Shown: piece after piece, positions 6,791 to 24,555 of the stretch
How positions within the stretch are numbered: position 1 is the stretch's first letter
Layout of the letters: each line of letters opens with the position of its first letter
Assembly (NCBI GenBank): GCA_021824345.1
Contig: JAKAKW010000004.1
Location: 11,019-75,018, forward strand
DNA from: a bacterium
GTDB taxonomy: Bacteria; Patescibacteriota; Minisyncoccia; Phycocordibacterales; UBA9973
DNA: 64,000 bases
Direction: 5' to 3'
The notes under the pieces: model-generated
The model's input: the letters and a program-made list of their open reading frames with translations, nothing else
What the model was told of the DNA's origin: nothing
Databases searched by the model: none
Position numbers and translations under genes: made by a program

Positions 6791-7903
6791 CTAGATTCCT
6801 TCTTCTTTTAGTTTTTCCACCAGTTCTTTTTCTTTCCGAGAAAGCTTGTTCGGCATGTTTATATTAAGCTTAATAAGCAGGTCTCCCCGCTTCTTGCCCC
6901 CCATGGGGACTCCCTTGCCCTTTATCCGAAGAATTTCATTTATAGATACGCCCTCGGGAACTTTTACGCTGATCTTTCCGTCCAGGGCGTCAATCTCCCG
7001 TTCAGTGCCAAGCAGAGCGTCGGAAAGCTTCAGATCTAAATTCATTACAAGATTGTTTCCTTCACGCCTAAAAATCGGATGCGGAGCAACATTTATTTTT
7101 ACATACAGGTCTCCGGGTGTTCCTTTTGACACCGCTTCCCCCATGCCGGAAAGGCGCATCATTTCTCCGTCGCGGATTCCGGCCGGTATATTCAAGGATA
7201 TTTCCGTTTCATTGCGAACCACTCCGCTGCCTTTGCAGTCGGAGCATTTTTCCGCCGGGACTTTGCCGCTGCCGCCGCAATCTTCGCATACTTTTGTAGT
7301 GGAAAAAGCGCCCAGGAACGATCTTCTGGTTTCGTGAATTTTCCCCTGGCCGTTGCAATGCTTGCAAGTTTCCATCTTGGTCCCAGGCTTCCCGCCGGTT
7401 CCTTGGCAGGTTTTACAGACGGATGTCTTGGTCATCAAAAATTTCCTGGTAGTGCCGAAAACGGAATCGCTGAAAGTAATTTCCATCTCGGTGGAAATAT
7501 CCCTGCCTCTTTTGCTCCCGCCCCTCTGACGTCCCATTCCCCCGCCGAAAAATTCTCCGAAAATGTCATTCAAATTGCCAAAGTCGAATTCCACTCCTCC
7601 GTTGCCGAATCCGGCGTTCTGAAAACCGGAAAAATCAAAACCGCCGAAGCCTCCCGGCCCGTATTGGCCTCCGGCCTGCCCCTGGCGCATGTTTTCAAAA
7701 CCGGGCCCGAACTGATCGTAATTCTGCCGTTTCTGGTCATCGGAAAGCACCTGGTAGGCTTCGTTCACTTCTTTAAACTTGCTCTCATCTCCTCCCTTTT
7801 TGTCGGGATGGTATTTGTGCGCCAATTTGTAAAACGCTTTTTTGATATCGTCCTTGGAAGCGCTTTTTTCAACGCCTAAAATTTTGTAGTAATCTTTTCC
7901 CAT
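6791..7903 (-). CDS. dnaJ: Chaperone DnaJ (Hsp40)
   Basis: J-domain 'DYYKILGV...HPD', G/F-rich region and four CxxCxGxG repeats ([32 protein letters not shown]). Confidence 0.92.
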
Positions 7904-7941: not shown

Positions 7942-9393
7942 TTAGATCATAGGCTCGGCTTCCTGGACTGGTTTGACGGCCTCTCCGGGCTTTTTGCCTT
8001 CAATTATGGCCTTTTCCTCGGCGCTGCGTATAATGGTGGCCTCTTCCTCGGCAATAAGCTTGGCAGCATCTTCTTTGGATATGGTGTATTTCCGCCTGGA
8101 AGCTTCCACTATCTCATTCCTATACGACGGATGGGTGGGAGGCAGGACTTTCAGGGATTCCGCGGAGAAAGGGTCGTATGACTCGCCGTCTATGGTCATT
8201 TTTATGAAAAATTCGGTAATGGCCAGGTTGATCATGTCTTTGATGTCGAAGACGGGCGCAAACTCAGGCTTCATTTTTACCGCGTCCTCGCCGCCGATGC
8301 GGAAGGAAATAATGCTCCCGCAATTACCGAGTACGGCGTGATGCACCCGCTCAATGATCTGCCCCACGAATTGGTGGGCGATGGTAAGGCACAGGCCGTA
8401 TTTGCGCGCTTCCGACAGAATGTTTTCAAAAGTCTGGGTCACCACGTTCTGGAACTCGTCCACGTACAGATAGAAATCGGTGCGCTTGTCTTCCGGTATG
8501 CTCGCGCGTTCCATTCCAGCTTGCTTGATTTTGGTCAGGAAAATGGACCCAAGGAATGAAGAGTTTTCTTCGCCCAGCCGGCCTTTGGAAAGATTGATCA
8601 GAATTATTTTCTTTTCTTCCATCAGCTTATGAATATCAATTTTGTTCTGCTTCTGTCCGAAAATATTGCGCAGAAGCGGATCGGAAAGAAATTGTCCGAG
8701 CTTGTTCACCAGCGGGATGATGGCGTCGGTATCGAATTTTTCCGACCAGTCGGCGAATTCAATGGCAAAGAATCTTTTTACCATATCGTCGGTGATATAT
8801 TCCACCACTTTCTGGCGGTAGTTTCGGTCCGTGAGCATGGAAATCATTCCGCGCATGGTGGCATGCGGATAGTCCAGAAGCGCGAGGCAGGTAAAGCGGA
8901 AGACGTGCTCCAAGCGCGGGGTCCAACTGGCTCCGAACTGCTTTTGAAAGACTTCTATCAGTCCCTGGGTCAATTGGAACTTGAACATCGGATCCACGTT
9001 TTGCAGAGGATTAAAGGAAGCAGGGTGTTCAAGATCGGTCGGATCAATAATGCATACGTCTTCCATGCGCTCTTTGGGGATATAGTCCAGCATGGCTTCT
9101 ATGACGTCTCCGTGCGGGTCAATAAGGCACAGGCCGTGGCCATAAGTCACGTCCTGGCGCAAAAGGAGCTCCATGAGCTTGGTCTTCCCAACTCCGGATT
9201 TGCCGATGATATAAAGATGCCGCCTGCGGTCTACTCGCTTGATGCCGAAAATAAATTTCTTCTCTTCAAGCGCGGCCACGTAATTGGTACGCCCTATAAA
9301 GGAAACTTCAGCCGGATCAATCCTGCCAAATACCGGGAGCTCCGGCGGCGGGGGGGCGTATTTGATTATCTGTACTCGATTGCCTCTGGGCAT
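7942..9393 (-). CDS. FtsK/HerA-superfamily P-loop ATPase (DUF87/HerA-like or T4SS coupling-protein-like), copy 1
   Basis: Walker A 'IIGKSGVGKTKL' followed by 'LIDPHGD'; Walker B 'FYLYVDEFQN'; 'LTIAHQ' sensor-like motif. Paralogous over its whole length to 20010-22241. Confidence 0.6.
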   Translation of the reverse strand: MPRGNRVQIIKYAPPPPELPVFGRIDPAEVSFIGRTNYVAALEEKKFIFGIKRVDRRRHLYIIGKSGVGKTKLMELLLRQDVTYGHGLCLIDPHGDVIEAMLDYIPKERMEDVCIIDPTDLEHPASFNPLQNVDPMFKFQLTQGLIEVFQKQFGASWTPRLEHVFRFTCLALLDYPHATMRGMISMLTDRNYRQKVVEYITDDMVKRFFAIEFADWSEKFDTDAIIPLVNKLGQFLSDPLLRNIFGQKQNKIDIHKLMEEKKIILINLSKGRLGEENSSFLGSIFLTKIKQAGMERASIPEDKRTDFYLYVDEFQNVVTQTFENILSEARKYGLCLTIAHQFVGQIIERVHHAVLGNCGSIISFRIGGEDAVKMKPEFAPVFDIKDMINLAITEFFIKMTIDGESYDPFSAESLKVLPPTHPSYRNEIVEASRRKYTISKEDAAKLIAEEEATIIRSAEEKAIIEGKKPGEAVKPVQEAEPMI

Positions 9394-9401
9394 ATAATCT
9401 T

Positions 9402-9410
9402 ATTTTACCA
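9402..9410 (-). promoter_or_regulatory. Extended -10 element TGGTAAAAT, 8 nt upstream of the ATPase copy-1 ATG (candidate leaderless promoter)
   Basis: The minus strand reads ...TGGTAAAATaagattatATG. The same TGGTAAAGT box sits at the same spacing before two family-gene starts (14737-14745 and 33613-33621). Confidence 0.4.
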
Positions 9411-9430
9411 TTATTCCCATTATTTTTATA

Positions 9431-9453
9431 GGGCGGAGGGTTACCCTCAGCCC
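9431..9453. repeat. Palindromic hairpin repeat family 2 (GGGCGGAGGGTTACCCTCAGCCC) between array A and ATPase copy 1
   Basis: Inverted repeat GGGCGGAGGG/CCCTC(A)GCCC. Related copies lie at 14765, 33641, 44638 and 54594/54625. Confidence 0.7.
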
Positions 9454-9492
9454 TTACCTTTCTACCTCAAAGTCTGCTTAGTTTTGCCGAAA

Positions 9493-11214
9493 TTAATACA
9501 CTTCCTTGTTGTAGCACTCTTCGCAGTATACGGTTTCGGGGCGGTCGGGGGCGAATGCGGTATCAAATTCGTTCAAACATTTGCCAGCGTGGCTGTGGCC
9601 GGCTTTCTGGCACATGCAAGAACGGTGCCAGAGCCTGCGCGGATTGCGGAGCAAAAACCGCTCCTGCCGCCTGCAAGAAAAGCATTTGTCCGGTATCGGA
9701 ATGTTCAGAATCCTGTATAAGGAAAGTTCAAGCGGGGTAATCTTAAAGGCTGTGGTGCATAGAGGATAATTTTTTGCTTCTTCCGGCGAATTCTGTGAAG
9801 AACACCCTATTACTTCATTGATAATGCCATCATTTGCTTCTGTGATAGTTTTCGGCATATTCTCACCGGCAAGAGTGATTTTATAATCTCTCTCAGGCCT
9901 CTCATACCATGAATATCCGGCCTTCACGGCCTCTTCTTTTGTCAGCGGGAAATAGTCCTGAGCCATAGATTCATTATAGGCGAAAGGCGAAACCTCAGCC
10001 GGGAAATATTCTCCCCACTCCCCTGTTTTTCGCATATGCTCTATTATTTTCTCTTTCAGTTCCGCATATTCTTCTTTTGAGTACTGCTTGTTCAATATGC
10101 AGTACTTCCCCTTCTCTAATCCGAAACAGCCGAAGCAGTCGCTGGTGCTGAAACACATATCGCAATAGCAGGAATCCACGATAGTGTTGAAGCAGCTGCG
10201 GATAAACATAGATCTGTGAGGAGAATCTACTCCCTGTATCTCATAGCATCTCTCACCTACTATAATTTCCGTACAATCCATGCAATCTTGAGTATCAAGC
10301 CACGCATCTTGCATATAGGCAGTGTCTTTGTTTTCTTTGCAATTAAATACTTCTTTCGCTCGCTGGCAATTCTCAATATAATCCCCGGTGGAATCTTCCA
10401 CTTGCGATCCGTGGTAATATTTCACTGGAATTTTTAATCGCAGTTTGTTCCTTTTTTCCTTTGCTTCGCGCACAGAATTCCTATCAAATGAAAAATCGCT
10501 TAATTTTTTTTCATACTCTTCCTTATTAAGCTTTTCATTAAACCAGCAATATTGCTTCTTTCTCAAACCCACGCAGCCGAAACAGTCCAAACACCCCTTG
10601 CAATCGTCACAGAACCAGAGTGATACGGAATCTGCGCAATCTCGGCACCAAGCGCACTTGGAGCAATGGTCAAGATTAATGCATTCGTAACAGAATTCGC
10701 TCTTGAAAACCATATAGCAATCACCGCAGAAATGGCTGTTTTGATTCCAGCTTCCATACATGCATTTCTCACACATTCCGCTGGTCACCAGCATGTAACA
10801 CTCCTTGTTGTCCTGAGATTGATTAGTGTATTCGCTATTTACGCTTCTGGAATTTACCATCGCCAGATGGGGCGCTTCTCTGCGCAACTCTTCATATTGT
10901 TCAAAAAATGGCCGATTAAAATCAAAATTCCGCCAGTACTCTTTGGCCTCAAAAGCGTCCGATTTCCAATATTCCTGCTCGTATACCGGAAAGGGCGCAT
11001 CCTCCCGATAAATGGAAATTATGGATTTTCCGGTAGCATCGCATTTCCGCTTGTAAAAATTGTACTCGTTTCGGTCCAAAAGCCGGCGAAGATATCGGCA
11101 ATCCGGACACAGGGTCGGCGGAGGCACGCCGATCTTTCCATAAAACCCGAAATCGTCCGGCTTTATCGCGAAATCTTTTTGACAATTTTTGCACTGTCTT
11201 TTTTCTTCCTTCAT
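9493..11214 (-). CDS. Cysteine-rich multi-zinc-ribbon family protein, array A copy 1 (unknown function)
   Basis: 573 aa. N-terminal module 'CKNCQKDFAIKPDDFGFYGKIGVPPPTLCPDCR'; core 'CDDCKGCLDCFGCVGLRKKQYCWFNEKLNKEEY' and '...CFGCFGLEKGKYCILNKQYSKEEY'; C-terminal 'PIPDKCFSCR...WHRSCMCQKAGHSHAGKC...YCEECYNKEVY'. Confidence 0.85.
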   Translation of the reverse strand: MKEEKRQCKNCQKDFAIKPDDFGFYGKIGVPPPTLCPDCRYLRRLLDRNEYNFYKRKCDATGKSIISIYREDAPFPVYEQEYWKSDAFEAKEYWRNFDFNRPFFEQYEELRREAPHLAMVNSRSVNSEYTNQSQDNKECYMLVTSGMCEKCMYGSWNQNSHFCGDCYMVFKSEFCYECINLDHCSKCAWCRDCADSVSLWFCDDCKGCLDCFGCVGLRKKQYCWFNEKLNKEEYEKKLSDFSFDRNSVREAKEKRNKLRLKIPVKYYHGSQVEDSTGDYIENCQRAKEVFNCKENKDTAYMQDAWLDTQDCMDCTEIIVGERCYEIQGVDSPHRSMFIRSCFNTIVDSCYCDMCFSTSDCFGCFGLEKGKYCILNKQYSKEEYAELKEKIIEHMRKTGEWGEYFPAEVSPFAYNESMAQDYFPLTKEEAVKAGYSWYERPERDYKITLAGENMPKTITEANDGIINEVIGCSSQNSPEEAKNYPLCTTAFKITPLELSLYRILNIPIPDKCFSCRRQERFLLRNPRRLWHRSCMCQKAGHSHAGKCLNEFDTAFAPDRPETVYCEECYNKEVY

Positions 11215-11219
11215 TTATT

Positions 11220-12980
11220 TCAGTATACCTCTTTTCTATAGCACGGCTCGCAGTAAATTTTCAGGTTCTTGGACGGGTCATATGTGGTCAATATTTCCTT
11301 TCCGCATTTGGAACATATGCGCTTCCATATTTTATATGGACTCCGCTTATGAAAACGCTTCATCAGCCGCGCTCGGGGACTTTTCGCAGGTAAAGGAATG
11401 GAATTTCGGCGGTAAAAATCAAGTTCGCTTTTTATTATCCTGAAAGGCCGGCCGGACTCCTGGCAGATTATAGCCATATTAAGAATATCATCCGTTGCGT
11501 CTTTTATATCATCCGTAAGATCCTTGCCAGAAATAACCTTCATGCCTTTTACATCCATGCTCACTTCGTAATCCCGAAGACGAGCGCCCAGTTTCCCTGC
11601 TTTTTCTTTGGAAACCGGCATCATAGCATACCCGTAAGTGTCGTGGTAATAGAAGAAAGAATCCTCCAGCCGCAAGAACTCCCCGTAATTTCCATCTGAA
11701 AGCATCTTTACTTTTATCTTATCCACCAGCTTCCAATATTCTTCGGGAGAGTATTGCTTATTCAGCACGCAGAAATTCTTCTTCTTTAAGCCGGAACACC
11801 CGAAGCAGTATTTACAATCCGAACATTCAAAGCAATATTCCACCTGCCGGCAATTACTGACGAAATATGAGGCAATGGCAAGATTGGAAAAAAGCCCTTC
11901 GGCAACATTGTAGCAAAGCTCGCCGGGGCCGAATATGGTCACGTCCATGCAATCGTGCGTGCCAATTATGTCGGAACTGTGCCGCACATTCTCATTCCGA
12001 TAGAAAGTTATCAAATATTTCATGCCGGAGGCATTGTATACATCCACGCAGTTTTTACTGTCTGATATGTGACTGCCGAGCGATCCGGGAGAGTTGCGTA
12101 TAATAAGATCCCGATGGATAGAGTCTTTTTCTATCATTTCCGAAAATTTACGCTTGTATTCTTCTGCCACCGATCTCCTGCCAAGATCTATTTCAGAAAT
12201 TTTTTGCATATACTCTTCTTTGGAAAACTGTTTATTGAGAAAACAATATTGTTTGCTCCGCAAGTTTGCGCACATAAAGCAGTCGTGACAATCATGGCAG
12301 TCAAACAAAAATTTTGAATTTATACAGCTTTTGCAATTTTGAATATATTGAGACTCATAGATGCGGTCGGAATCTAATATATCGTAGCAATGCTCTAAAT
12401 GGTCCACTCGCAGGACGTCTACGCAATCCTTAGCATATGCCGCCCATAGTCCATAGGACACGTCTTCGGAAACGCCTATCACGGAAGAAACATAGCAGTT
12501 TTTGACGTCCATGCTCTCCACGCTGTAATCACTGTTTATGATGTTCTTGTTGTATCTGGATATAGCCATATGGGGTACGTCGTGGAGCAATTTGTTCAGC
12601 TGTTCATAGAAAGATTCATTTGCATCATATACGCGACCGAATCCTGTTGCGTCCCAAGCATTCACATCCCACCAGTATTTGTTGTCATAAATTTTATATT
12701 GGCTTTTCGCGTCCAACTGGGAAATCAGGCTTTCCCCAGAATGAGCGGAGCATTCTTTTTTATAGAACTGGAAAATATTGGCAAGCATGGCCATGCGCCT
12801 GCGCGCCCGGCATTCCGGACATTCATTGAGAGGAGGAACTCTCAATTTTTTTAAATACGATATGTCCTCAGCGCTGATATCAAAAGAATTCCCGCAAGTT
12901 TCACAAGTGCGTTTTTGCGGAGAAAGATTTTCATATATCTTTTCCAGGGCTTCATCAAATTTCGGAGTTTTTGTCTGCAT
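11220..12980 (-). CDS. Cysteine-rich multi-zinc-ribbon family protein, array A copy 2
   Basis: The listed ORF extends to 13055, but the family-conserved start is MQTKTPKF at 12980, 1 nt after the stop of copy 3. Motifs 'CETCGNSFDISAEDISYLKKLRVPPLNECPECR', 'CHDCHDCFMCANLRSKQYCFLNKQFSKEEY' and C-terminal 'CSKCGKE...YCEPCYRKEVY'. TGA stop. Confidence 0.8.
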   Translation of the reverse strand: MQTKTPKFDEALEKIYENLSPQKRTCETCGNSFDISAEDISYLKKLRVPPLNECPECRARRRMAMLANIFQFYKKECSAHSGESLISQLDAKSQYKIYDNKYWWDVNAWDATGFGRVYDANESFYEQLNKLLHDVPHMAISRYNKNIINSDYSVESMDVKNCYVSSVIGVSEDVSYGLWAAYAKDCVDVLRVDHLEHCYDILDSDRIYESQYIQNCKSCINSKFLFDCHDCHDCFMCANLRSKQYCFLNKQFSKEEYMQKISEIDLGRRSVAEEYKRKFSEMIEKDSIHRDLIIRNSPGSLGSHISDSKNCVDVYNASGMKYLITFYRNENVRHSSDIIGTHDCMDVTIFGPGELCYNVAEGLFSNLAIASYFVSNCRQVEYCFECSDCKYCFGCSGLKKKNFCVLNKQYSPEEYWKLVDKIKVKMLSDGNYGEFLRLEDSFFYYHDTYGYAMMPVSKEKAGKLGARLRDYEVSMDVKGMKVISGKDLTDDIKDATDDILNMAIICQESGRPFRIIKSELDFYRRNSIPLPAKSPRARLMKRFHKRSPYKIWKRICSKCGKEILTTYDPSKNLKIYCEPCYRKEVY

Positions 12981-12981
12981 A

Positions 12982-14730
12982 TTAATACACCTCCTTGTTG
13001 TAACAATCCTCGCAGTATACGGTTTCGGGGCGGTCGGGGGCGAATGCGGTATCAAATTCGTTCAAACATTTGCCAGCGTGGCTGTGGACGGCTTTCTGGC
13101 ACATGCAAGAACGGTGCCAGAGCTTCATGGGATTGCGTTTGGCAAGGCGCGCTTCGTGCCGGCAGAAGAAGCATAGATGCGGGAGCGGAACACCGAGTTT
13201 TTTATACAGCTTCAGTTCCCCGTCGGTTATCTTGAATGCCCCGCGGCAACGCCCGCCGGAATTATTCCGATTCGCGCATCCTATTACTTCGGAAAGAATC
13301 GAATCCCGCACATCGCCCAATCTGTCCGGCAGATCTTTCGCCTCAATGGTGAGGGAATACTCGTTCTGCTTTTTGTCCCGCCACCTGTACCCCCTCGAGA
13401 GAGCCTCCTCCTTGGTCAAAGGAAAATAATCCTGGGCCTGGGTTTCGTTATAACAGAATGGAGAAAGTTCCGCCGGGAAGAATTCGCCGTACTTGTATGT
13501 CAAACCATTCCTGTCCACATAAGGCATATTCATCATATGCTCTTTGATTTTTGGAACCAACGCTTCATACTCCTCCTTTGAATATTCCTTGTTTAAAATG
13601 CAATGCTTCTTATTCCTTATTCCAATACAGCCGAATAAATCGGAACAGCCGTGGCAATTGAACGAATATTCCACGTTATTTGAGCTGTACACCACGCTGG
13701 TGAATAAGTTGCGGTAATTTCCAATGCCGGTATCAAATGCTTCATACGCCAGCTCTGCGTCCCCCAGACCCGGTCCAATATCGTAGCCGTCTTTTACCAC
13801 ATGGGCCACCCAATGCGCGAACTTGCAGTCTTCTATGTTGCCATTTCCGTCAAAAATAATATGGCAATTTTTTACCCCGTCCAAATTATCTCCGGTGGAA
13901 TTTATACTCCTAATCTGGTTTGCAAATCTATTGACGGCTCCGAGTACAAGCTTGTCAAATTTTTCTTTTAATTTTGAAATTTCGGCATAGCTTGTGAGAT
14001 CGATTTCAGACAAGCGCTTAGTGTATTCTTCCTTGCTTAATGGTTCATTCCACATGCAATATGATTTGTTGCGCTGGTTTGTACAGCCCAAACAATTGGT
14101 ACAGCCATGGCAATCGTAAAGAAAATATGAATCCACGCAGGCCTTGCATTTCATGGAATACATAAGGCGATAGCAGTCTTCGCAAAACATATCCTCGTAA
14201 CAGAGTTCTGATTTGTGAGTCACATAAGTGTCTGAGCAGTCTTTGGTCTCGGAGATGCGATTGGAATAGAAAGTACGCTCAATTTTCCATGACCCGGAAG
14301 ACATGTAGCTTTCTCTTGAATCCTCCGCCACATTGCAGTAATCGCTGTTTACGGCATGGATGTTAGAAAGAGCCTGTTGGGGAAAATCCCTATATAACTC
14401 GCTCCATTGCTGAAAAAATGGTTTTGAAAAATCATAGTCCCGCCCGTAAGAAAGTTGGTCCCAATTGTCGCTCCACCAATAACTTGAATCATATGTTTTC
14501 AGCTTTTCATCCGGCGGATACATGCTGATTATGTCCTCGTCGTGCCCCGGCGCGTCACATTTGCGCCTGAAAAGAGACATTTCGTTGCGCCAGCTTATGC
14601 GTCGAACAGTACGGCAATCGGGGCAAAAAGTCGGCGGGGGCACGCCGATTTTCTTGTAGAAATTAAAATCCTCCGGCTCAATAGCGAAGCTCTGCTTGCA
14701 ATTCTGGCATTGCCGGGTTTCGGATTGCAT
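12982..14730 (-). CDS. Cysteine-rich multi-zinc-ribbon family protein, array A copy 3
   Basis: 582 aa with 'MQSETRQCQNCKQSFAIEPEDFNFYKKIGVPPPTFCPDCR'. Its C-terminus is nucleotide-identical over about 115 bp to copy 1. Confidence 0.85.
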   Translation of the reverse strand: MQSETRQCQNCKQSFAIEPEDFNFYKKIGVPPPTFCPDCRTVRRISWRNEMSLFRRKCDAPGHDEDIISMYPPDEKLKTYDSSYWWSDNWDQLSYGRDYDFSKPFFQQWSELYRDFPQQALSNIHAVNSDYCNVAEDSRESYMSSGSWKIERTFYSNRISETKDCSDTYVTHKSELCYEDMFCEDCYRLMYSMKCKACVDSYFLYDCHGCTNCLGCTNQRNKSYCMWNEPLSKEEYTKRLSEIDLTSYAEISKLKEKFDKLVLGAVNRFANQIRSINSTGDNLDGVKNCHIIFDGNGNIEDCKFAHWVAHVVKDGYDIGPGLGDAELAYEAFDTGIGNYRNLFTSVVYSSNNVEYSFNCHGCSDLFGCIGIRNKKHCILNKEYSKEEYEALVPKIKEHMMNMPYVDRNGLTYKYGEFFPAELSPFCYNETQAQDYFPLTKEEALSRGYRWRDKKQNEYSLTIEAKDLPDRLGDVRDSILSEVIGCANRNNSGGRCRGAFKITDGELKLYKKLGVPLPHLCFFCRHEARLAKRNPMKLWHRSCMCQKAVHSHAGKCLNEFDTAFAPDRPETVYCEDCYNKEVY

Positions 14731-14745: not shown

Positions 14746-14764
14746 CGTTTGCGTAAAAATTCTA

Positions 14765-14787
14765 GGGCGGAGGGTATCCCTCCGCCC
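14765..14787. repeat. Palindromic hairpin repeat family 2 (GGGCGGAGGGTATCCCTCCGCCC) in the only sizeable intergenic gap of array A; on the minus strand it is followed by a T5 run (terminator-like)
   Basis: Perfect 10-bp stem. On the transcribed (minus) strand it is followed by TAGAATTTTTACG. Confidence 0.7.
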
Positions 14788-14834
14788 TCCCTCGGCCCTT
14801 CTCCGCCTTGGCTTCCAAATTAAAACCATTGCCG

Positions 14835-16577
14835 CTAATATACTTCTTTCTGATAGCAAGATTCGCAATACACTGTCTCCGGTTTATCGGGCGCATAGCT
14901 GGTTTCAAATTCATTTGGGCATTTGTCTCGGTGTCCGTGATTGGATTTTTCGCACATGCAAGAACGGCTCCAAAGCTTCATGGGATTGCGCTTGGCAAGC
15001 CTGCCGTAATGCCGGCAATTTGAACACAGGCGCGGAAGAGGCAAGCCGAGTCTGCGGTAAAATCCCAGCTCGTCCGGAATAATGCGAAACGCTTCGGTGC
15101 ACTGTTCGTTACATTTTCCTTTGTGCGCGCACTCAACAGACTTGTTTAATATATCGTCTTTTACATCGCTTATATCGTCCGGCAATTCCTCATTTTTTAT
15201 TTCAATTTCGTAGTTTTTCGATTCTTTTTCTTTCCATCCGTATCCCCTTTCCCGCGCCTCCTCTTGAGTCAAAGGGAAGTATTCTTGGGCAATGGTTTCG
15301 TTATATGCCCAGGGAGAAATTTCCATCGGGAAAAAATCGCCGTAGACATAAGCCCTGCCTTTCGCGTCAATATACGGCTTTTCCGCCATTTGCTTCACGA
15401 TTTCATCCTTTAGTTTGTTGTACTCCTCTTTTGTATATTGCTTGTTTAATATGCAGTATTCTTTTCCGCGCAATCCTATGCAACCGAACAAGTTCGAAGA
15501 TGCCTGACAAGAAAAACAATACGCGCAATTGTTGGAACTATAGGTGGTAATGATGGCAAGATCGTTCATTCCCACGTCGGTATCCACTCCTTCGTAGCAC
15601 AGCTCGGTTTTGTAATTGCCGTAAACGTCATAATTTTCCTTGATAAAAAGCGAATGAGCGGAAAATCGGCAATTTTCCGCCTCGTCTGATATATCAAAGC
15701 AATTATGGGAATTTTTGGATTTGGTAATGTTATGTCCCGTGCAATTCTCGCATTTTACGATGTTGGCATAGCGGCGAATGGCTTTTCCGCGTATTTCACT
15801 TTCATATTTTTCTCTTATTTTTTCTCTGTTTGCATAGCTGGATAGTTTCAAAGATTTTAGTTTGTTTTCATAATCATCTTTAGTCAGCTGTTCATTGAAA
15901 TAACAATATGACTTGCTGACCAGATTAGAACAGGCAAAGCAGTTATTGCAATTTCGGCATCCGTATAGATACGAAGAATTCACGCAAGAGGTGCAGCTTT
16001 CGCTCCCCATCACGCTGAAACATTCTTGGCAATCCAGAATATCGTAGCAGAGTTCATTGTGAGGAGAAGTAAGCATATCTTGAGAATCTTTTGAAAAATT
16101 GCTTCGGTTCGAATACCGTACGTTTTCGTCATATCCGCACCCGAACACGAGATAGCAATTCTTGTTACCGTCCACATAATTCGTGTATTGAGAGTTCACG
16201 GAATTGATGGTTTGGAGGGCCGGCAAGGGCGTTTTCTTCCACAACTTGTCATATTGCTCAAAGAAAGGTCTGGACGGGTCATATTCAATGCCGTAATCAG
16301 TCGGATCCCATTTGTCGCTCCACCAGTACTCCTTATCATACACAGTGTAGGGAGAATCCGGCGCGTACATGCTTAGCATCTCCTCGCTTCTGCCGGGCGC
16401 ATTGTTTTTTCTTTTATACAGCGACCGTTCATTCCGGAAAGCCATCCTCCTGACAATTCTGCATTCCGGACACCACGTCGGCGCCGGCACCTTTATGCGC
16501 TCGTAAAACCCGAAATCATCCGGCTCTATGACGAAGTCCTTTTTGCAATTTTGACATTGCCAGGTTTCGGATTGCAT
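14835..16577 (-). CDS. Cysteine-rich multi-zinc-ribbon family protein, array A copy 4
   Basis: 580 aa: 'MQSETWQCQNCKKDFVIEPDDFGFYERIKVPAPTWCPECR', 'CRNCNNCFACSNLVSKSYCYFNEQLTKDDY', 'CAYCFSCQASSNLFGCIGLRGKEYCILNKQYTKEEY', C-terminal '...YCESCYQKEVY'. Confidence 0.85.
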   Translation of the reverse strand: MQSETWQCQNCKKDFVIEPDDFGFYERIKVPAPTWCPECRIVRRMAFRNERSLYKRKNNAPGRSEEMLSMYAPDSPYTVYDKEYWWSDKWDPTDYGIEYDPSRPFFEQYDKLWKKTPLPALQTINSVNSQYTNYVDGNKNCYLVFGCGYDENVRYSNRSNFSKDSQDMLTSPHNELCYDILDCQECFSVMGSESCTSCVNSSYLYGCRNCNNCFACSNLVSKSYCYFNEQLTKDDYENKLKSLKLSSYANREKIREKYESEIRGKAIRRYANIVKCENCTGHNITKSKNSHNCFDISDEAENCRFSAHSLFIKENYDVYGNYKTELCYEGVDTDVGMNDLAIITTYSSNNCAYCFSCQASSNLFGCIGLRGKEYCILNKQYTKEEYNKLKDEIVKQMAEKPYIDAKGRAYVYGDFFPMEISPWAYNETIAQEYFPLTQEEARERGYGWKEKESKNYEIEIKNEELPDDISDVKDDILNKSVECAHKGKCNEQCTEAFRIIPDELGFYRRLGLPLPRLCSNCRHYGRLAKRNPMKLWSRSCMCEKSNHGHRDKCPNEFETSYAPDKPETVYCESCYQKEVY

Positions 16578-16589: not shown

Positions 16590-18296
16590 CTATAATACTT
16601 CTTTTATATAGCACTTGCTACAAAATATTCTTGGAGCGTCTTCCTTCCGGTAATGAGTTCTGAATATTACTCCGCAATTATCACACGATCTTTCCCCTAG
16701 CGTCATTTGCCACGCCCATCTTTTTATCTTTTCATCAATCCTGCAAAACGGACAACGCCGAGGCAATGGCAAATTGTGTTTCTTTAAAAATTGAATCTCC
16801 TGGTGGATTATCTTAAATCCCCGACTGCATGTAGCACATTGTATGGATTCTTCAGTTATATTTTCAGGCGCATCCTTAGAATTATCCGGCAAATCGCCTG
16901 ATTTCATAGTAATGGAATATTCCCTTGAATCAGGTTCCAGCCATGATAGATGCTTTTTAACTGTCTCCTCCTTTGATTTTGGAAAGAAAAGCGAAGCAAG
17001 GGTATCGTTATATGCGTGAGGAGACATGGTTATGGGAAAAAATTCCCCGTATCCATACTCTAAGCCATTCTCGCTTTTGTACGGCATTTCGGCCATCTGC
17101 TTAATTATTTTTTCCCTTATCTTAAAATATTCTTCTTTTGGATACTGCTTGTTTAATATGCAATATTTGCCGTTCCTTAAGCCCACGCACCCGAATAAAT
17201 CAGAGCCGCCAAAGCACAAGATTGTATAGTCCGAGGAATGCAATCCATGGCCTCCGTCCTGGCTGAATTTCACATTTTCTGTTTCAGAGCCGACAGTTAC
17301 GCATTCGTACATATTTTCTGCGGCTGTCCATCCATCCATATAGTCATATGAATTTTTCACTATTCCGTTTTTTATCAGCATTAGAAATTTAGAGTCCTCC
17401 GACAGTGTGACGTCGTAACATTCCCGGCAGTTTTTTGACTGGAAAACATAGTTGCCCGTGACGTTTTTGGAGAAATCGTCATAAATCGGGCGCGGCAGAT
17501 TTGATTTCCAGAAATCGCGCACTTTTTCTCGCATGGATTCGTAAGTGGAATATGAACCCAAATCTATTTCGCTTAATTTTTTCTCATACTCTTCTTTTGC
17601 AAGCTGTTCATTAAAAAAACAGTAGGACTTATTGCGCAAATTCACGCATCCAAAACAATTGTTGCAGTTGCGACAGTCTTTTATGAAATAGCAGTCCATA
17701 CAGCTGATAGTATTGCCCTCCGCGGTGAAAATGTTATAGCTTTTAAAACCATTCGTAACGTCAAACGTGTTTTCGCATTCCCAAGTCATGGAAGAATCAT
17801 ATATTCTTTTGCTTCTCTTTAAGAAGAAGCCGTAAGCCGTATCTTCGCACCCTTCGGTGAAAAATACGAGGTAGCAATTTTTGCACCATCCGGCAAAGTT
17901 GGTATATGGAGAAAGCTTGCGCGTAATCTGATCAATAGGCTGGGCTCTAAGAGGAACCTGTTCAAACAGTTTTGTAAATTGCTCAAAAAATGGCCTAGAG
18001 AAGTCGTATTCTATCGCATATTTTTTTGGATCCCATTTATCGCCCCACCAGCAATCATGGCAATAAATACGATATTTATTCTCCGGCGAGTACATGGAAA
18101 TGCCTTCCTCTCCGCATAAATCGCATTTGCGTTTGAAAAGTTTGGTGGATTTCATCCACACTAGGCGCCTTTGAAGACGACATCTCGGACAGAACGTCGG
18201 CGGAGGCACTTTGATTTTTTCGTAAAACCCGAAATCATCCGGCTCTATGACGAAGTCTTTCTTGCAGTTTTGGCATTGTTTGGTAGCGGATTCCAT
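16590..18296 (-). CDS. Cysteine-rich multi-zinc-ribbon family protein, array A copy 5
   Basis: The listed ORF extends to 18395; the conserved start MESATKQCQNC at 18296 lies 2 nt after the stop of copy 6. N-module with a second ribbon 'CDLCGEEGISMYSPENKYRIYCHDCWWGDKWD'; C-terminal 'CDNCGVIFRTHYRKEDAPRIFCSKCYIKEVL'. Confidence 0.8.
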   Translation of the reverse strand: MESATKQCQNCKKDFVIEPDDFGFYEKIKVPPPTFCPRCRLQRRLVWMKSTKLFKRKCDLCGEEGISMYSPENKYRIYCHDCWWGDKWDPKKYAIEYDFSRPFFEQFTKLFEQVPLRAQPIDQITRKLSPYTNFAGWCKNCYLVFFTEGCEDTAYGFFLKRSKRIYDSSMTWECENTFDVTNGFKSYNIFTAEGNTISCMDCYFIKDCRNCNNCFGCVNLRNKSYCFFNEQLAKEEYEKKLSEIDLGSYSTYESMREKVRDFWKSNLPRPIYDDFSKNVTGNYVFQSKNCRECYDVTLSEDSKFLMLIKNGIVKNSYDYMDGWTAAENMYECVTVGSETENVKFSQDGGHGLHSSDYTILCFGGSDLFGCVGLRNGKYCILNKQYPKEEYFKIREKIIKQMAEMPYKSENGLEYGYGEFFPITMSPHAYNDTLASLFFPKSKEETVKKHLSWLEPDSREYSITMKSGDLPDNSKDAPENITEESIQCATCSRGFKIIHQEIQFLKKHNLPLPRRCPFCRIDEKIKRWAWQMTLGERSCDNCGVIFRTHYRKEDAPRIFCSKCYIKEVL

Positions 18297-18298: not shown

Positions 18299-20005
18299 CT
18301 ATATTATTTCTTTCTGGTAACACTCTACGCAATATACTATTTCCGGCCTTTCGGGAGAATACGGAGTTTCCATTTCCTTTCCGCAATTGTCGCACTTGCG
18401 CTTGAAAAATTTTCTTGGAAGAGTTCTACCGATGCGAGTATTGTGTCTGGCAAGAGGAGCACTACGAGGTATCGGTAGGCCGACTTTTCTGTAAAAGGAA
18501 AGCTCCATTGGGATTATTTTATACGCCTTGCCTGTTTCTTCGCATTTTAAAACCTTGTCAAGAATATCGTCGCCTACATCTTTTATATCGTCCGGTATCA
18601 AATAATCAGAAAATTCATATGTGGTATCGGATTTGTAATCGCTCCAGACAAAGCCCCTTTCAATGGCCTCTTCTTTTGAAAGAGGAAAATATTCGCAGGC
18701 CGCAGTTTCATTGTATCCGTGAGGGGCGAAACCAGCCGGAAAAAATTCTCCGTATCCATATACCTTTCCAGATTCGTCAATAAAAGGCATATCGTTCATG
18801 TGTTTCTTTATTTTCGCCAACAGTTTATCATATTCCTCTTTAGAATATTTTTTATTTAGAATCACATATTCCCCTCCCCTTATCCCGGAACATCCGAAGC
18901 AATAGCTGGAACTGGTAGTCATATAAGAGTATTCCACATTGGCAATTGTCATTTTCTTCAACGGGTCGCTGGAAGTGCATCCGAGAAGGGCTTTAGAATT
19001 ATATGCTCCGCCGCTGTGGGCGGACTCGTACACCAGTTCGGCGGCGCCGAAGCAGGAGCAATCCCAGCAGTCTCGTATCCAGCCTCCAATATAGATATTC
19101 TTTGAATCCTCAATTTTTGTTACTTGCCAGCAATTCTTCGCATTTTTGCATTCTGAAAGCTCATTGCCGGTTGAATTTACCGTTTTAATTATAAAATTTT
19201 CCCTGTGAGGTTGCTTTTCCCAGACAAGACTGCTTTGTTTCTTCCACCATTCAAGGCCGTTATGGGAAGAATACGGATACTCCGCGATAAATTTTTCATA
19301 GGCTTCCTTTGAATATTGCTCGTTCATTATGCAATATTGCTTGTTCCGTAGGCCCGCACAAGCAATGCAGTTGCTGCAATTATGGCAGTCGTAACAAAGA
19401 ATTGAATTGAGGCAGTTCTCGCATTCTTCGGAGAAATGGGTAAAGTAACATCTTTCGCAATGTATATCAAAAGAGCAATATTCCGGATTTATCGCCCAGC
19501 AGTTGTCAAAACTATTTTTGCCGTAAAGCTCGTATGTATTGTATGCCGAATCTTCATTATAATGTCCTCCTACATTTAAATAGCAATTTTTGTCGTCCGC
19601 CTCCTGATTTACCCAATCGCTATTGACGCAATTCAAGTTATATATAGAGATATGAGGGACTTTGAAAAACAATTCTCTCCATTGCTCAAAAAATGGCCTT
19701 GAAAAATCGTATTCCTGTCCGTAAGAATAGGGATCCCATTTGTCGCCCCACCAGCAATTGGTGCAGTACATGGGATATTTTTTATCCGGAGAAACCCTTG
19801 ATACCACTTCCTTTCCGCACAAATCGCACTTGCGCTTGTACAAGTGCCTTTCATTGCGAAATGCCAGCCGGCGCTGTTCCCTGCAATCTACACAGAACGT
19901 CGGCGGAGGCACTTTGATTTTTTCGTAAAAAGATAAATCTTCCGGCTCAATAGCGAAGCTCTGCTTGCAGTTCTGGCATATTCGCTTCTCATTCTTATCA
20001 TCCAT
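18299..20005 (-). CDS. Cysteine-rich multi-zinc-ribbon family protein, array A copy 6
   Basis: 568 aa: 'CQNCKQSFAIEPEDLSFYEKIKVPPPTFCVDCR', second ribbon 'CDLCGKEVVSRVSPDKKYPMYCTNCWWGDKWD', core 'CYDCHNCSNCIACAGLRNKQYCIMNEQYSKEAY', C-terminal 'CDNCGKEMETPYSPERPEIVYCVECYQKEII'. Confidence 0.85.
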   Translation of the reverse strand: MDDKNEKRICQNCKQSFAIEPEDLSFYEKIKVPPPTFCVDCREQRRLAFRNERHLYKRKCDLCGKEVVSRVSPDKKYPMYCTNCWWGDKWDPYSYGQEYDFSRPFFEQWRELFFKVPHISIYNLNCVNSDWVNQEADDKNCYLNVGGHYNEDSAYNTYELYGKNSFDNCWAINPEYCSFDIHCERCYFTHFSEECENCLNSILCYDCHNCSNCIACAGLRNKQYCIMNEQYSKEAYEKFIAEYPYSSHNGLEWWKKQSSLVWEKQPHRENFIIKTVNSTGNELSECKNAKNCWQVTKIEDSKNIYIGGWIRDCWDCSCFGAAELVYESAHSGGAYNSKALLGCTSSDPLKKMTIANVEYSYMTTSSSYCFGCSGIRGGEYVILNKKYSKEEYDKLLAKIKKHMNDMPFIDESGKVYGYGEFFPAGFAPHGYNETAACEYFPLSKEEAIERGFVWSDYKSDTTYEFSDYLIPDDIKDVGDDILDKVLKCEETGKAYKIIPMELSFYRKVGLPIPRSAPLARHNTRIGRTLPRKFFKRKCDNCGKEMETPYSPERPEIVYCVECYQKEII

Positions 20006-20009: not shown

Positions 20010-22241
20010 TCAAGAATCGAGCATTTTCCTTAATATGTCTTCCGGCACCTCTTTCACCTTTTTGGAATACGGCGGAACGGGAATCTCATTTTTTCCCGAA
20101 GTAGAGATTGTTTCGATATCGTTTTCCGGAGTTGATTCCGATCCGGGATCACTCTGTATCGGTTCATCTTTCTGTTCCGGTTGCGGTTCCTGTTCCGGCT
20201 CTGATTCTGGTTCTGGTTCTGGTTCCGACATATCAGGTTCCGCCGGAGAAACCGGTTCCAAAACATCCTTGGCGGGTTCCTCCTCTTTTTTCTCCGGCAT
20301 TGCTTCAAAAATCAAATCTTTAAGCTTATTCATATCTTCTGCGCTGGCTGCCCGATCTTCTTTTTTAGGCTTTTCAGCTTCAGCGGAATGCTTTTCCTCT
20401 TTAAGAGATTCAAGTGAAATTGGTTCCGGCCCAGGATCCTTTGGGCGCTCTTCGCTTTGAATTTTTTCTTCTTTTGGAACAGGTGGAATATTGTCATTCA
20501 AGGTCTTGTTCAGTATTTCTCTCAAAGCAGAGGTATCTCTTTCTTTTTTTGCCGGCGGTTCCTCCTTCTTTTGCTGAAACTTTTTTCCGTTCTGGTTTTT
20601 CTTAAAAACCGCCTTAAGCGAAGAAAAGCCGTTTGTTTTTTTGCCATTGTTCGGCACAGAGCTCGGCTCTTCCTTGAATTCTATTCCCAAATCCGCCAGA
20701 GGCTTGAAAAACCTTCCTTCATCTCGGCCGGAGCCGGTATTGGAGGAGCCGGACAAGGGCTTCAATTCCCCCGCTTTTATTTTGGCAATGCAATCCCGGC
20801 AATATATGGGCCTGCCGGGCTCGGGTCTGAAAGGCACCTTGGTCGGCTGTCCGCATATCGAGCACACCGCGTCAAACTTCTCCACTCCGGTAGTGGAACC
20901 GGAAGAGCTTGCGTCATCTTCTCCAAGAGACATTCCGCTCCAGTCATTTATCTCCTTTTCAACCGTATCGCGAGGACGGCAGTACAGTTCCCTGGACTTT
21001 CTTATGACCTCCGCTTCCGCTTCCGGATTTTCGCCTATTTTCACCATGGGCGGAAGCGTCCGGGCAGAAAACGGGCGGGAGGTGACTCCGTCTATCATCA
21101 GCTTGATGTATATCTTGTAGTTCGGGAGATTCACTATGTCCTCGGGGGTGAATTCCGGTTCAAATTCTTTTTCCAGAAATTCAGCGTCGTCCGCTCCCAC
21201 TCGAAACACGATCATGGTGCCGATGTTGCCGAAAATGGCGTCCCGAACCGAAGAGCTTTCCTTGGTGACAAGCTGGGCGGTGTATTGGTGCGCCACGGTA
21301 AGGTTTAAGCGATATTTTCGCGCTTCGGAAAGAATGCCGGCGAAGGCATCGGTAACGAAGTTTTGAAATTCGTCTACGTACAAATAAAAGTCCTTGCGTT
21401 CTTCCTCGGGTATGCGCACCCGTTCCATGGCGGCCAGCTGGATTTTGGTAATGATCATTCCGCCGAGAAGCGCGGAGTTGTCTTCGCCTATGCGACCCTT
21501 GGAAACGTTCACCAGGAAAATTTTCCCTTGGTTCATTAAGTCAAAAATATTGATGGTGCTCTTGGACTGCCCCACGATATTGCGGATGATAGAGGTGGAA
21601 AGAAATTGGCCGACTTTGTTTTGAATGGGAGCAATGGCTTCATTGCGGAACTTATCCTGCCACTCTTCGTACTCGTGCACCCAGAAAGCCTTAATGACCG
21701 GATCTTTCAGGTTGCTGATGATTTTTTGCCGATAGTCTTTGTCCACCAGCATCCTGGGAATGCCGAGCATGGTTGTGCCGGGAGTATCAAGAAGCGCGAG
21801 AATTGCATTGTTCAAAATGTATTCCATTCGGGCGCTCCAGGCGTTGGCCCAAATTTTTGTGAAAATGCCCATGAGGCCGGATGCCACCAGGTGCTTGTAT
21901 TTCGGATCAGGCAATTCCAAAACATTGAATCCGATGTGATACTCGGTGTCCGCCGGGTTGAAATACACCACATCTTTCAAGCGATGCTGGGGAATGGCGG
22001 AAAGCACCGCTTCCACGTTTTCCCCGTGCGGGTCCACCAAGCAGACGCCGTCGCCGTTCTTGATGTTCTGAATGATCATGTTGAACATGAGCACCGATTT
22101 ACCGGTGCCGGACTTTCCGAGAATATACACGTGCTGGCGCCTATCCTTCCGCTTTATGCCGAAGAGCTTGTTTTGGTCGCGAAAAGTGGTTTGGCCCAGG
22201 TATGTTAAATCCTTGTTATATGGGAGTTCCGTAGCGTCCAT
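20010..22241 (-). CDS. FtsK/HerA-superfamily P-loop ATPase, copy 2, with a C-terminal zinc-ribbon and acidic low-complexity extension
   Basis: Walker A 'ILGKSGTGKSVL' then 'LVDPHGEN'; Walker B 'FYLYVDEFQNF'. The roughly 330-aa C-terminal tail carries 'CSICGQPTKVPFRPEPGRPIYCRDCIAKI' and a 'PEPEPESEPEQEPQPEQ' stretch. Its stop lies 4 nt from the start of array copy 6. Confidence 0.6.
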   Translation of the reverse strand: MDATELPYNKDLTYLGQTTFRDQNKLFGIKRKDRRQHVYILGKSGTGKSVLMFNMIIQNIKNGDGVCLVDPHGENVEAVLSAIPQHRLKDVVYFNPADTEYHIGFNVLELPDPKYKHLVASGLMGIFTKIWANAWSARMEYILNNAILALLDTPGTTMLGIPRMLVDKDYRQKIISNLKDPVIKAFWVHEYEEWQDKFRNEAIAPIQNKVGQFLSTSIIRNIVGQSKSTINIFDLMNQGKIFLVNVSKGRIGEDNSALLGGMIITKIQLAAMERVRIPEEERKDFYLYVDEFQNFVTDAFAGILSEARKYRLNLTVAHQYTAQLVTKESSSVRDAIFGNIGTMIVFRVGADDAEFLEKEFEPEFTPEDIVNLPNYKIYIKLMIDGVTSRPFSARTLPPMVKIGENPEAEAEVIRKSRELYCRPRDTVEKEINDWSGMSLGEDDASSSGSTTGVEKFDAVCSICGQPTKVPFRPEPGRPIYCRDCIAKIKAGELKPLSGSSNTGSGRDEGRFFKPLADLGIEFKEEPSSVPNNGKKTNGFSSLKAVFKKNQNGKKFQQKKEEPPAKKERDTSALREILNKTLNDNIPPVPKEEKIQSEERPKDPGPEPISLESLKEEKHSAEAEKPKKEDRAASAEDMNKLKDLIFEAMPEKKEEEPAKDVLEPVSPAEPDMSEPEPEPESEPEQEPQPEQKDEPIQSDPGSESTPENDIETISTSGKNEIPVPPYSKKVKEVPEDILRKMLDS

Positions 22242-22325: not shown

Positions 22326-24263
22326 TTACTGTTTGGGCTGTTCCCCTTCGGGCTTATCCCCTTCCTTGAATTCCGCGTCGCGGACTTCGGGGCCTTGCTC
22401 TTCCGGAGTTTTAGCCTCTCCAGCGCCAGGGTTTGCTCCCGGCTGTCCGGCACCCGGCTGGCCTTGCTGATTCATGGCCTGGCCGATTTTGGACATCTCG
22501 CTGGAAAGCTCTTCTGTGGCCTTCTTGATTGCTTCGGCATCAGTGCCGTCTTTCACGCCTCGCAGGGCCGTAATCTTATCGTTTACGCTCTTCTTTACGT
22601 CTTCGGGAATCTTGGCCTCGTTGTCTTTCACAGCCTTCTCTGCGGTGTAAATCATCATTTCGGCGGTATTTTTTACATCCACGATTTCTTTCTTTTTCTT
22701 GTCTTCATCTGCGTGAGCTTCCGCATCAGCTTGCATTTTCTTAATGTCTTCATCCTTTAAGCCGGAACTTGCCTCTATGCGGATGGACTGCTCCTTGCCG
22801 GAAGCCTTGTCTTTGGCTTTTACGTTCAGAATACCATTGGCATCCACATCAAAAGTGACCTCCACCTGCGGAATTCCGCGAGGCGCCGGAGGAATGCCGT
22901 CCAATATGAACCGGCCGAGAGATTTGTTGTCGGCTGCCATAGGACGTTCCCCTTGCACGATGTGAATTTCAACGGAAGTTTGATTGTCTGCCGCAGTGGA
23001 AAATACCTGCGATTTGGAAGCCGGGATAGTGGTATTTTTATCAATCAGTTTTGTAGCTACGCCTCCCAGAGTCTCAATGCCCAAGGAAAGCGGAATAACA
23101 TCAAGAAGCAGAACATCGCGGACATCTCCCTGCAAAACTCCGGCCTGCACGGCGGCTCCGAGAGCCACCACCTCGTCGGGATTTATGGACATATTCGGCT
23201 GTCTGCCAAAAAGATTTTTTACCGCCTCAATAATGGCCGGCATGCGAGTTTGTCCGCCCACCATGATAATCTCGTTTATTTCGTTCATCTTAAACGGCGA
23301 CGCTTCAAGAGCGCGCTTGGTAATTTCAATGGAACGGTCGATAAGATCTTTGGCCAGAGTCTCCAAAGTGGCCCTGCTCATCTTCAGGAGCAGGTGTTTT
23401 GGACCGCTTGAATCGGAAGTGACGAATGGAATATTAATTTCCGCCTCAAGGGTGGTGGAAAGCTCATGTTTGGCCTTCTCGGCCGCTTCGCGCAAGCGCT
23501 GGTTGGCCAAAGGATCCTTGGTAACATCTATTCCGGATTCTTTCTTAAACTCATCCGCTATCCATTGCACCATTCTGCGGTCAATGTCGCCTCCTCCCAT
23601 GTGGCTGTCTCCGTCGGTAGATTTCACTTCAATCACATCTTCTCCGATTTCCAACACGGAAACGTCAAAAGTTCCGCCTCCGAAGTCGTATACCACTATC
23701 TTTTCATTTTTCTTTTTATCAAAACCGTATGCGAGAGCGGCGGCGGTGGGTTCATTTATGATGCGCTTCACATCCAAGCCCGCGATAGCTCCGGCGTCCT
23801 TAGTCGCTTTTCTCTGGGAATCGTTGAAGTAAGCCGGAACGGTAATCACCGCTTCAGTAATCTTTTCTCCAAGCTTAGCTTCCACATCGGACTTAATCTT
23901 CTGAAGAATCATGGCGGAAATTTCTTCCGGACGATAGAATTTGTCACCCATCTTTACCTGCACTCCGCCATCTTGTCCCGCTTGAATCTTGAATGAAGCG
24001 GACTTTAAGTCATTCTGCACTCCGGGATCGTCAAAGCGATGTCCCATGTAGCGCTTGATTTCAGAAATGGTATTTTCCGGGTTAGTTACCGCCTGGCGCT
24101 TGGCAAGAAGCCCCACGAGCCTATCGCCGTTTTTGGTCTGCGCAACCACCGAAGGAGTAGTGCGATTGCCCTCCACATTTTCAACAATCTTCGGCGCTCC
24201 GCCCTCAATTATTGCAACCGCAGAGTTTGTAGTTCCTAAGTCAATTCCTATAATTTTACTCAT
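22326..24263 (-). CDS. dnaK: Chaperone DnaK (Hsp70)
   Basis: '[14 protein letters not shown]', '[10 protein letters not shown]' and the substrate-binding domain with a charged lid; 645 aa. Confidence 0.95.
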
Positions 24264-24290
24264 GATATTAATTTAATTATTTGTAATGCT

Positions 24291-24465: not shown

Positions 24466-24527
24466 ACTATTCCGACATTATATACTAATGCTATAATTTT
24501 GACAAGTTTTTCGTGGTCGCAAAAAGC

Positions 24528-24555
24528 TTGTCAAAAGGTATAATAATGCTATAAT
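24528..24555 (+). promoter_or_regulatory. Sigma-70 promoter for the PaaX-like gene: -35 TTGTCA, extended -10 TGcTATAAT ending 6 nt before the ATG (leaderless)
   Basis: A second TGcTATAAT copy lies at 24489-24497, followed directly by TTGACA (24499-24504). Confidence 0.55.

Follow-up and report, generated by a model that had tools for sequence, protein, structure and literature searches.

Probable short gene conversion between the 3' ends of two anciently diverged tandem paralogs in a patescibacterial genome

A 64,000-nt stretch of DNA from a bacterium of the Patescibacteriota (NCBI GenBank assembly GCA_021824345.1, contig JAKAKW010000004.1, positions 11,019 to 75,018) was analysed; this whole stretch is referred to below as the window, and positions are counted from its first letter. 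It contains two tandem arrays of paralogous genes, array A with 6 complete paralogs (A1 to A6) and array B with 5 (B1 to B5), all on the minus strand, with ~19 kb for all 11. The 3' ends of A1 and A3, which are separated by A2, are nearly identical over 143 nt, while the two genes are otherwise highly diverged. We consider it very probable that this tract is the product of a short ectopic (interlocus) gene conversion between anciently diverged tandem paralogs, lying on the same strand 3.5 kb apart. Gene conversion had been put forward in an earlier reading of this DNA (the original prediction), and it is supported by the patchiness of the identity with its sharp boundaries, by an excess of synonymous identity, by incongruence of the tails with the phylogeny and orthology of the genes, and by the recovery of the same locus in two deposited assemblies. 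In the proposed event, the last ~114-143 bp of one copy, most likely A3, would have templated the repair or replacement of the homologous stretch of A1, by RecA-type homologous repair or by template switching at a replication fork. A1 would then be a chimera in which a body of the A1 lineage is joined to a C-terminal zinc-ribbon module (46 aa) of the A3 lineage. The mechanism is an ordinary and well-known one, namely repair-type copying, here in a tiny groundwater-type bacterium.

Results

Extent of the tract shared by A1 and A3

The A1 copy of the tract lies at 9492-9634 and the A3 copy at 12981-13123 (both minus strand), at a fixed offset of 3489 nt. Each copy comprises the last 46 codons (LWHRSCMCQKAGHSHAGKC...YCEECYNKEVY in A1) and the stop codon, and in the A3 copy the start codon of A2 follows 1 nt later. 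The two copies are identical at 138 of 143 nt (96.5%, 5 mismatches), and their longest exact run is ~78 nt. The core of the tract (9521-9634) contains one mismatch (9599 C vs. 13088 A, plus strand); the other four fall in the last 29 nt, and identity drops sharply at 9635. Read on the coding strand, the five within-gene differences are G/T, A/G, G/T, C/T and A/G. The near-identical ends with a single mismatch described in the original prediction are thus real, with two corrections. The first of its two ranges was off by 2 nt, the string that it quoted corresponding to 9522-9634 vs. 13011-13123, and its block of ~115 bp matches only the core, the high-identity stretch being longer (143 nt including the stop codon).

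Outside the tract, A1 (9493-11214, minus strand, 573 aa) and A3 (12982-14730, minus strand, 582 aa) are far more diverged, as had been claimed, with 784 of 1562 nt identical (50.2%) and a protein identity of 41%. This patchy pattern excludes uniform identity along the gene pair, and a recent whole-gene tandem duplication was ruled out by the 50% DNA and 41% protein identity. The intervening open reading frame (ORF) A2 (11220-12980, minus strand, 586 aa) has a different C-terminus, as also noted earlier; it is an alternative, short zinc ribbon and lies outside the tract.

The similarity within the tract extends to positions that leave the protein unchanged. Third codon positions of A1 and A3 are identical in 43/47 codons within the tract and in 196/520 outside it. 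Where both genes encode the same amino acid, the codons are identical in 39 of 42 cases within the tract vs. 107 of 209 outside (Fisher p=8e-8). Comparison of all copies at the nucleotide level, by a scan of all 55 paralog pairs for high-identity segments, placed the A1/A3 tract first. In a permutation in which the order of the synonymous-informative codons was shuffled, and the global p was corrected across all 55 pairs, the A1/A3 tract gave p = 0.0005.

In protein terms, the tract is a C-terminal zinc-ribbon module (A3 residues 537-582), consisting of three short strands and one helix in an AlphaFold2 model. It runs from the conserved LWHR codons to the stop codon, which is also the end of homology between the two loci, the sequences downstream of the stop codons being non-homologous.

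Age of the paralogs and direction of the transfer

A1 and A3 each have their own series of orthologs in many Paceibacterota, Nomurabacteria and other Patescibacteria, with identities of 66-74% for A1 and 66-71% for A3. The bodies of the two proteins are ~70-74% identical to those of their own orthologs and 41% identical to each other. Immediately upstream of the tract, A1 and its orthologs carry the motif CRRQ.RF.LRNPR[KR], and A3 and its orthologs CRHE.RL.KRNPMK; the A1 body keeps the motifs of its lineage up to ...CRRQERFLLRNPRR. The tails behave differently. Those of A1 and A3 agree at 44/46 residues, whereas the best agreement with the tails of 238 orthologs is 33/46 for A1 orthologs and 36/46 for A3 orthologs (an example of an A1-lineage tail is ...EFETSYAPDRPEIVYCEKCYQQEVY). 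Bodies that group with their orthologs and tails that group with each other form the incongruence that conversion would be expected to leave. The existence of separate ortholog series for A1 and A3 shows that their duplication is old, and the shared tail is therefore a recent and probably non-reciprocal copy at the end of ancient paralogs.

To assess the direction of transfer, the tract was compared with same-length tails of orthologs, of which 58 belonged to the A3 lineage and 18 to the A1 lineage. Four residues of the tract occur in A3-lineage tails and in 0% of A1-lineage tails: A25 (29%), F26 (12%), T33 (10%) and D23 (7%). Two further residues are more frequent in the A3 lineage, K42 (71% vs. 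17%) and S4 (31% vs. 6%). The log-likelihood ratio of the tract was 31-33, which is above all 18 A1-ortholog tails (maximum 25.4) and in the upper range of the A3-ortholog tails (mean 20.3, maximum 32.7). Because the residues of the tract resemble the A3 lineage, A3 is probably the donor and A1 the acceptor.

Further tracts in the window

The next two tracts in the scan of 55 pairs, B2/B3 and B1/B3, are both in array B, are additional to those listed in the original prediction, and are stronger than the A3/A6 block that it had proposed. Array B comprises B1 (25081-26793), B2 (26798-28510), B3 (28513-30207), B4 (30212-31948) and B5 (31951-33606), all on the minus strand. The 5' tract of B2 (28407-28512) pairs with that of B3 (30104-30209). 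Within the coding sequences (28407-28510 vs. 30104-30207) 102/104 nt are identical, including 95 nt of perfect identity running through the ATG (global p=0.002), and the tract corresponds to the first N-terminal zinc ribbon. The second pair lies near the 3' ends of B1 (25108-25206) and B3 (28540-28638), on the minus strand, and shares 96/99 nt (global p=0.0095); like the A1/A3 tract, it falls in the C-terminal zinc-ribbon region. Judged from these sequences, the conversion process appears to have acted at least two more times, in array B.

B2 has its identical 5' tract with B3 despite one in-frame TGA, at 27587-27589 (minus strand), with the same reading frame on both sides. The corresponding alignment column in the family holds W in 38/83 and D in 38/83 sequences, and A3 has TGG. 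The TGA is probably either a recent TGG-to-TGA nonsense mutation, marking a young pseudogene, or a sequencing error.

The other complete paralogs of array A are A4 (14835-16577), A5 (16590-18296) and A6 (18299-20005), also on the minus strand. The 5' block said to be common to A3 and A6 is present (14666-14710 vs. 19935-19979, minus strand, 43/45 nt), although the two ranges first given for it were unequal in length (63 vs. 44 nt). The block falls in the most conserved segment of the protein. The similarity is real, but its synonymous identity gives no significant support for conversion (pairwise p=0.16, global p=1.0). A block between A5 and A6 (18189-18227 vs. 19892-19930, minus strand, 39/39 nt; pairwise p=0.002, global p=0.21) is borderline and is a possible micro-conversion.

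Terminal tracts in related loci

To place the tracts of the window in the context of the family, 79 related loci from other genomes were collected. In total 49 loci, the window included, contain at least two family genes, giving 245 pairs. Tracts were defined as stretches of >=45 bp with >=90% nucleotide identity between otherwise diverged paralogs. Such tracts were found in the loci L009, L032 (four pairs), L060, L068, L077 and L037. With the exception of L037, they are confined to the very ends of the genes, either 5' (nt 1-128) or 3'. In L032 (11012-17861), the first ~125 bp of three paralogs are 90-95% identical. In L037 (7223-8926 and 10001-11734), two paralogs share a tract of 676 bp with 90% identity, which makes up the 3' 40% of the genes. 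In L068 (4199-5953 and 5956-7659), an A3-ortholog and an A1-ortholog are neighbours, and their last 71 bp are 90% identical, which is no more than suggestive of an exchange of the A3/A1 type.

The synonymous-codon permutation was applied to 254 pairs from the window and 47 other loci. The short tracts that reached p<=0.001 fell within model positions 1-39 or 523-559; the sole exception to these terminal positions at p<=0.001 was one long 3' tract. We also determined, for each region of the protein, the fraction of proteins whose nearest neighbour lies in their own locus. This was 14% for the N-terminal 40 residues and 13% for the C-terminal 47 residues, vs. 1-4% for internal regions and 4% for the central conserved block. 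The difference from the central block was significant for both the N-terminus (Fisher p=0.002) and the C-terminus (p=0.004), and pooled termini differed from pooled internal regions with p=1e-11.

Alternative explanations

Several other explanations for the A1/A3 tract were considered. The last codons of A3 double as a Shine-Dalgarno sequence (AAGGAGGT), so that some nucleotide-level constraint exists at the gene end, and a plus-strand ORF (8629-9720) overlaps the A1 tract. It is nevertheless very unlikely that nucleotide-level selection, without copying, keeps the block identical, whether it acts on an RNA structure, on a signal for translational coupling, on an antisense gene or on a small-RNA or regulatory target. 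A4, B1, B3 and B4 have tails of the same type, with similar peptides encoded by other codons (41-61% of same-amino-acid codons in common with A1 or A3), and the nucleotide block is therefore not a family-wide constraint; in pairs of other paralogs with this tail type, which lack the block, 40-76% of such codons agree, and orthologs so far have only the peptide in common. A1 and A3 differ precisely in the Shine-Dalgarno part, one of the four 3'-terminal differences falling within AAGGAGGT, and A3 lacks an antisense ORF of comparable extent. A structured RNA element was rejected on the grounds that the tract has no Rfam match at E<=1 and that its RNA folds no better than shuffled sequences (z=-0.40). 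An assembly or binning artefact, in which A3 reads were wrongly joined to A1 as its tail or two strains were collapsed into one, deserves attention because the source is a metagenome-assembled genome and tandem paralogs are a classic site of mis-assembly. The possibility of a chimera had been raised with the original prediction, and it now appears highly improbable. A de Bruijn assembler may join the wrong flanks to an existing block, but it cannot generate the block itself. The two copies differ at five private positions and have unique flanks, and their exact run is shorter than the k-mer length of 141. The locus is 100% identical in the ENA MEGAHIT contig ERZ27237541 k141_1314830 (224 kb) and in NCBI GCA_027428315.1 (DAICBQ010000012.1), both exact proteins are present on 12 contigs, and terminal tracts of this kind are also seen in independent genomes that other projects produced.

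Reciprocal recombination, either as unequal crossing-over followed by loss or as a partial duplication of the A3 tail replacing that of A1, was considered together with RecA-independent template switching. Direct tandem copies 3.5 kb apart favour unequal exchange and replication slippage, and one boundary of the tract coincides with the end of homology. However, a single A3/A1 crossover would delete or duplicate A2 together with the A1 body, and in the array A2 is present once and no segment is duplicated. Moreover, it is just such an outcome, a short internal patch whose flanks are both kept, that defines conversion, whatever the enzymology, and we regard these routes as unlikely. The 11 tandem paralogs, the presence of at least 3 tracts and the recurrence of terminal homogenisation across genomes could also bring to mind programmed variation, by cassette switching or diversity generation, with the tract as a snapshot of frequent switching. 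This is extremely improbable. The copies are full-length in 11/11 cases, start with ATG and have coupled Shine-Dalgarno sequences; an internal TGA is found in B2 alone, and silent truncated cassettes are absent. Each paralog is conserved as an ortholog across genomes, the protein collection holds no allelic variants, with the exact proteins carried by 12 contigs, and the proteins lack a signal peptide and start with a zinc ribbon. The mismatches are not adenine-specific, and a diversity-generating retroelement was rejected since the differences listed above are not confined to template adenines. A scan of the genes that flank the arrays identified chaperones, TrwB/HerA-like ATPases and a PaaX-like regulator.

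Some observations weigh against gene conversion as described here, or against parts of it. No unconverted A1 allele or close relative was found among the sequences searched, and the event is thus neither dated nor polarised directly. In a 15-billion-protein collection, A1 and A3 are each the only sequence in their 90% cluster, with no variant alleles, and exact-pattern scans of Joint Genome Institute (JGI) metagenome contigs with a 24-mer of the A1 body, taken ~7 nt upstream of the tract, and with a 28-mer of the tract gave 0 matches each. Over the last 29 nt, identity is only 86%; possibly the true tract reaches no further than ~9521, or there were two events. The tract was chosen after looking at the data, but the permutation ran over all pairs and is thus corrected for that choice. 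Both deposited assemblies may derive from the same reads, and the direction rests on few diagnostic residues and only 18 comparable A1 orthologs. Finally, the DNA conservation of the central block in the window (0.60-0.64) is like that of the N-terminus, and yet the block has no tracts. Local homology alone is therefore not sufficient to account for the terminal bias. Conversions in the paralog-specific middle are probably removed by purifying selection, with the terminal modules probably interchangeable.

If gene conversion is the correct explanation, homologous recombination between sequences of ~50% identity would still operate in reduced genomes, seeded by short conserved modules, and trees and orthology calls of this Patescibacteria family would mislead at the gene termini. 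The confinement of tracts to the zinc-ribbon termini suggests that these modules, unlike the middles, are interchangeable between paralogs, which is a clue to the function of the family.

Comparison with known systems

The closest analogue appears to be the outer-membrane paralogs babA/babB and homA/homB of Helicobacter pylori. These, together with sabA/sabB, undergo segmental concerted evolution by RecA-dependent intragenomic gene conversion; the 3' segments of babA/babB and homA/homB are more alike within a strain than between strains, and conversion yields chimeras (PMC3960876, citing Pride & Blaser 2002). The paralogs described here resemble them in their divergent middles, in having one gene end that is more similar within a genome than between genomes, and in the formation of chimeric genes. 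They differ in being cytoplasmic-looking zinc-ribbon proteins in direct tandem arrays, whereas those of H. pylori are surface adhesins at dispersed loci. The tracts here are also much shorter (~100-140 bp) and affect both termini, and the assemblies and protein clusters give no evidence of phenotypic switching or within-population variation.

Non-reciprocal homologous exchange, as proposed here, also homogenises duplicates such as tufA/tufB and the rRNA operons within a genome. Those duplicates are near-identical over their full length, whereas the partners here have ~50% DNA identity and only a short conserved module is exchanged. Short conversion tracts between tandem or clustered homologous segments are likewise a feature of Neisseria pilE/pilS and Borrelia vlsE; unlike these, the arrays of the window have no architecture of expression site and silent cassettes and encode no surface protein, and assemblies and protein clusters reveal no population heterogeneity. 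Multigene families of Mycobacterium tuberculosis (PE/PPE and others) are reported to be gene-conversion hotspots (preprint PMC13061034). The two cases share short tracts among multicopy paralogs that are detected from assemblies, and they differ in that the M. tuberculosis study draws on polymorphism among many strains, whereas a single genome state is available here.

The paralog family

The 11 paralogs have pairwise identities of 29-49% in protein and 43-57% in DNA. Their products are cysteine-rich proteins of ~570 aa without a signal peptide; a zinc ribbon lies at the N-terminus and a treble-clef-like finger at the C-terminus. Patescibacteria contain thousands of members of this family, which is uncharacterised and has no Pfam or NCBIfam model. 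Scans of the paralogs with Pfam, NCBIfam, PADLOC and PHROGs gave no informative family, only weak C-terminal zinc-finger matches to zf_Tbcl_2 (PF23477) and TIGR04272. A search for literature on the family, or on gene conversion in Patescibacteria, found nothing relevant.

The AlphaFold2 model of A3 (m6dafa56e15b4), based on an 83-sequence alignment, was confident, with a predicted local distance difference test (pLDDT) score of 83.7 and a predicted template modelling (pTM) score of 0.86. A Foldseek search of the PDB with this model gave no significant fold match, and a sequence search of the PDB was likewise without a match. The best Foldseek matches (E ~4-8) were left-handed beta-helix proteins, aligned to the cysteine-rich middle, which has little secondary structure.

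A3 contains an internal repeat. The motif C..C..F.I.PEDF.FYKKIGVPPPTFCPDCR..RR at residues 8-45 recurs at ~495-535 as C...AFKITDGELKLYKKLGVPLPHLCFFCRHEARL.KR, which suggests that a module of a zinc ribbon plus a helix was duplicated, with one copy at each end of the protein.

A further protein, P0234, is 62% identical to A1 and was considered as part of a third array of the same genome. This was rejected because it belongs to a different organism, with a GC content of 29.5% vs. 45.8%.

Genomic setting

Both arrays sit within an hsp70 operon (6791-34289). Read on the minus strand from high to low positions, the order is GrpE (33684-34289), B5 to B1, a regulator, DnaK (22326-24263), an ATPase, A6 to A1, a second ATPase and DnaJ (6791-7903). 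The regulator is PaaX_M-like and lies on the plus strand between B1 and DnaK (24562-25080). The two ATPases are of the TrwB/DUF87 type (HerA/VirD4-like) and bracket array A. The one adjoining A6 (20010-22241) carries a zf_Tbcl_2 finger, the same finger as in the paralog tails, and the second (7942-9393) adjoins A1. Among the related loci, an ATPase is within reach in 28/80, and DnaK, DnaJ or GrpE in 18/80 only. A general linkage of the family to chaperones was rejected on this count.

We also considered whether the N- and C-terminal zinc ribbons are kept alike within a genome through docking to a common, co-evolving partner, such that the conversions are non-neutral and the modules undergo concerted evolution of their own. 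This idea is speculative, and we attach a low probability to it. The partner may be one of the adjoining TrwB/HerA-like ATPases (one with zf_Tbcl_2) or the DnaK/DnaJ/GrpE machinery, and the middles of the paralogs may then diversify for different clients or substrates. If docking did apply, the family would be a modular adaptor set of a Patescibacteria-specific system, and this would offer an initial clue to the function of a very large protein family that lacks annotation.

The plus-strand ORF at 8629-9720 (363 aa) is antisense to the A1-proximal ATPase gene and to the A1 tail. It is probably spurious and has no support.

Regulatory signals

At the 3' ends of A2, A3, B1, B3 and B4, the final codons (K/Q)-E-V-Y and the stop codon spell a Shine-Dalgarno-like AAGGAGGT or AAAGAGGT, and the spacers from these ends to the ATG of the next paralog are 1-5 nt long. 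In A3, AAGGAGGT (in the region 12982-13000) lies 9 nt before the start of A2. A1 has no coupled downstream gene and reads AAGGAAGT at the Shine-Dalgarno-like position. The protein tail thus seems to serve also as the ribosome-binding site for the gene that follows, a candidate case of translational coupling.

A GC-rich palindrome of 25 nt, AGGGCGGAGGG-N3-CCCTCCGCCCT, occurs at 9430-9454, 14764-14788 and 33640-33664, with a chance expectation of none. Each copy is intergenic; downstream of it come TTTTTACGCAA..GTGGTAAAGTT (or TGGTAAAAT) and, within ~10 nt, an ATG. The copies stand before the ATPase gene at 7942-9393, before A3, which is the first gene past this hairpin-plus-promoter-like module, and before B5. 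The module looks like a terminator or operator combined with an extended -10 promoter, possibly with leaderless starts, and it may mark a common regulon of the arrays and the chaperone genes.

Possible operator sites are present in the region that separates the divergent PaaX-like gene and dnaK (24264-24561), namely two copies of AATTATAGCATTA and the inverted repeat TTGACAAGCTTTTT...AAAAACTTGTCAA.

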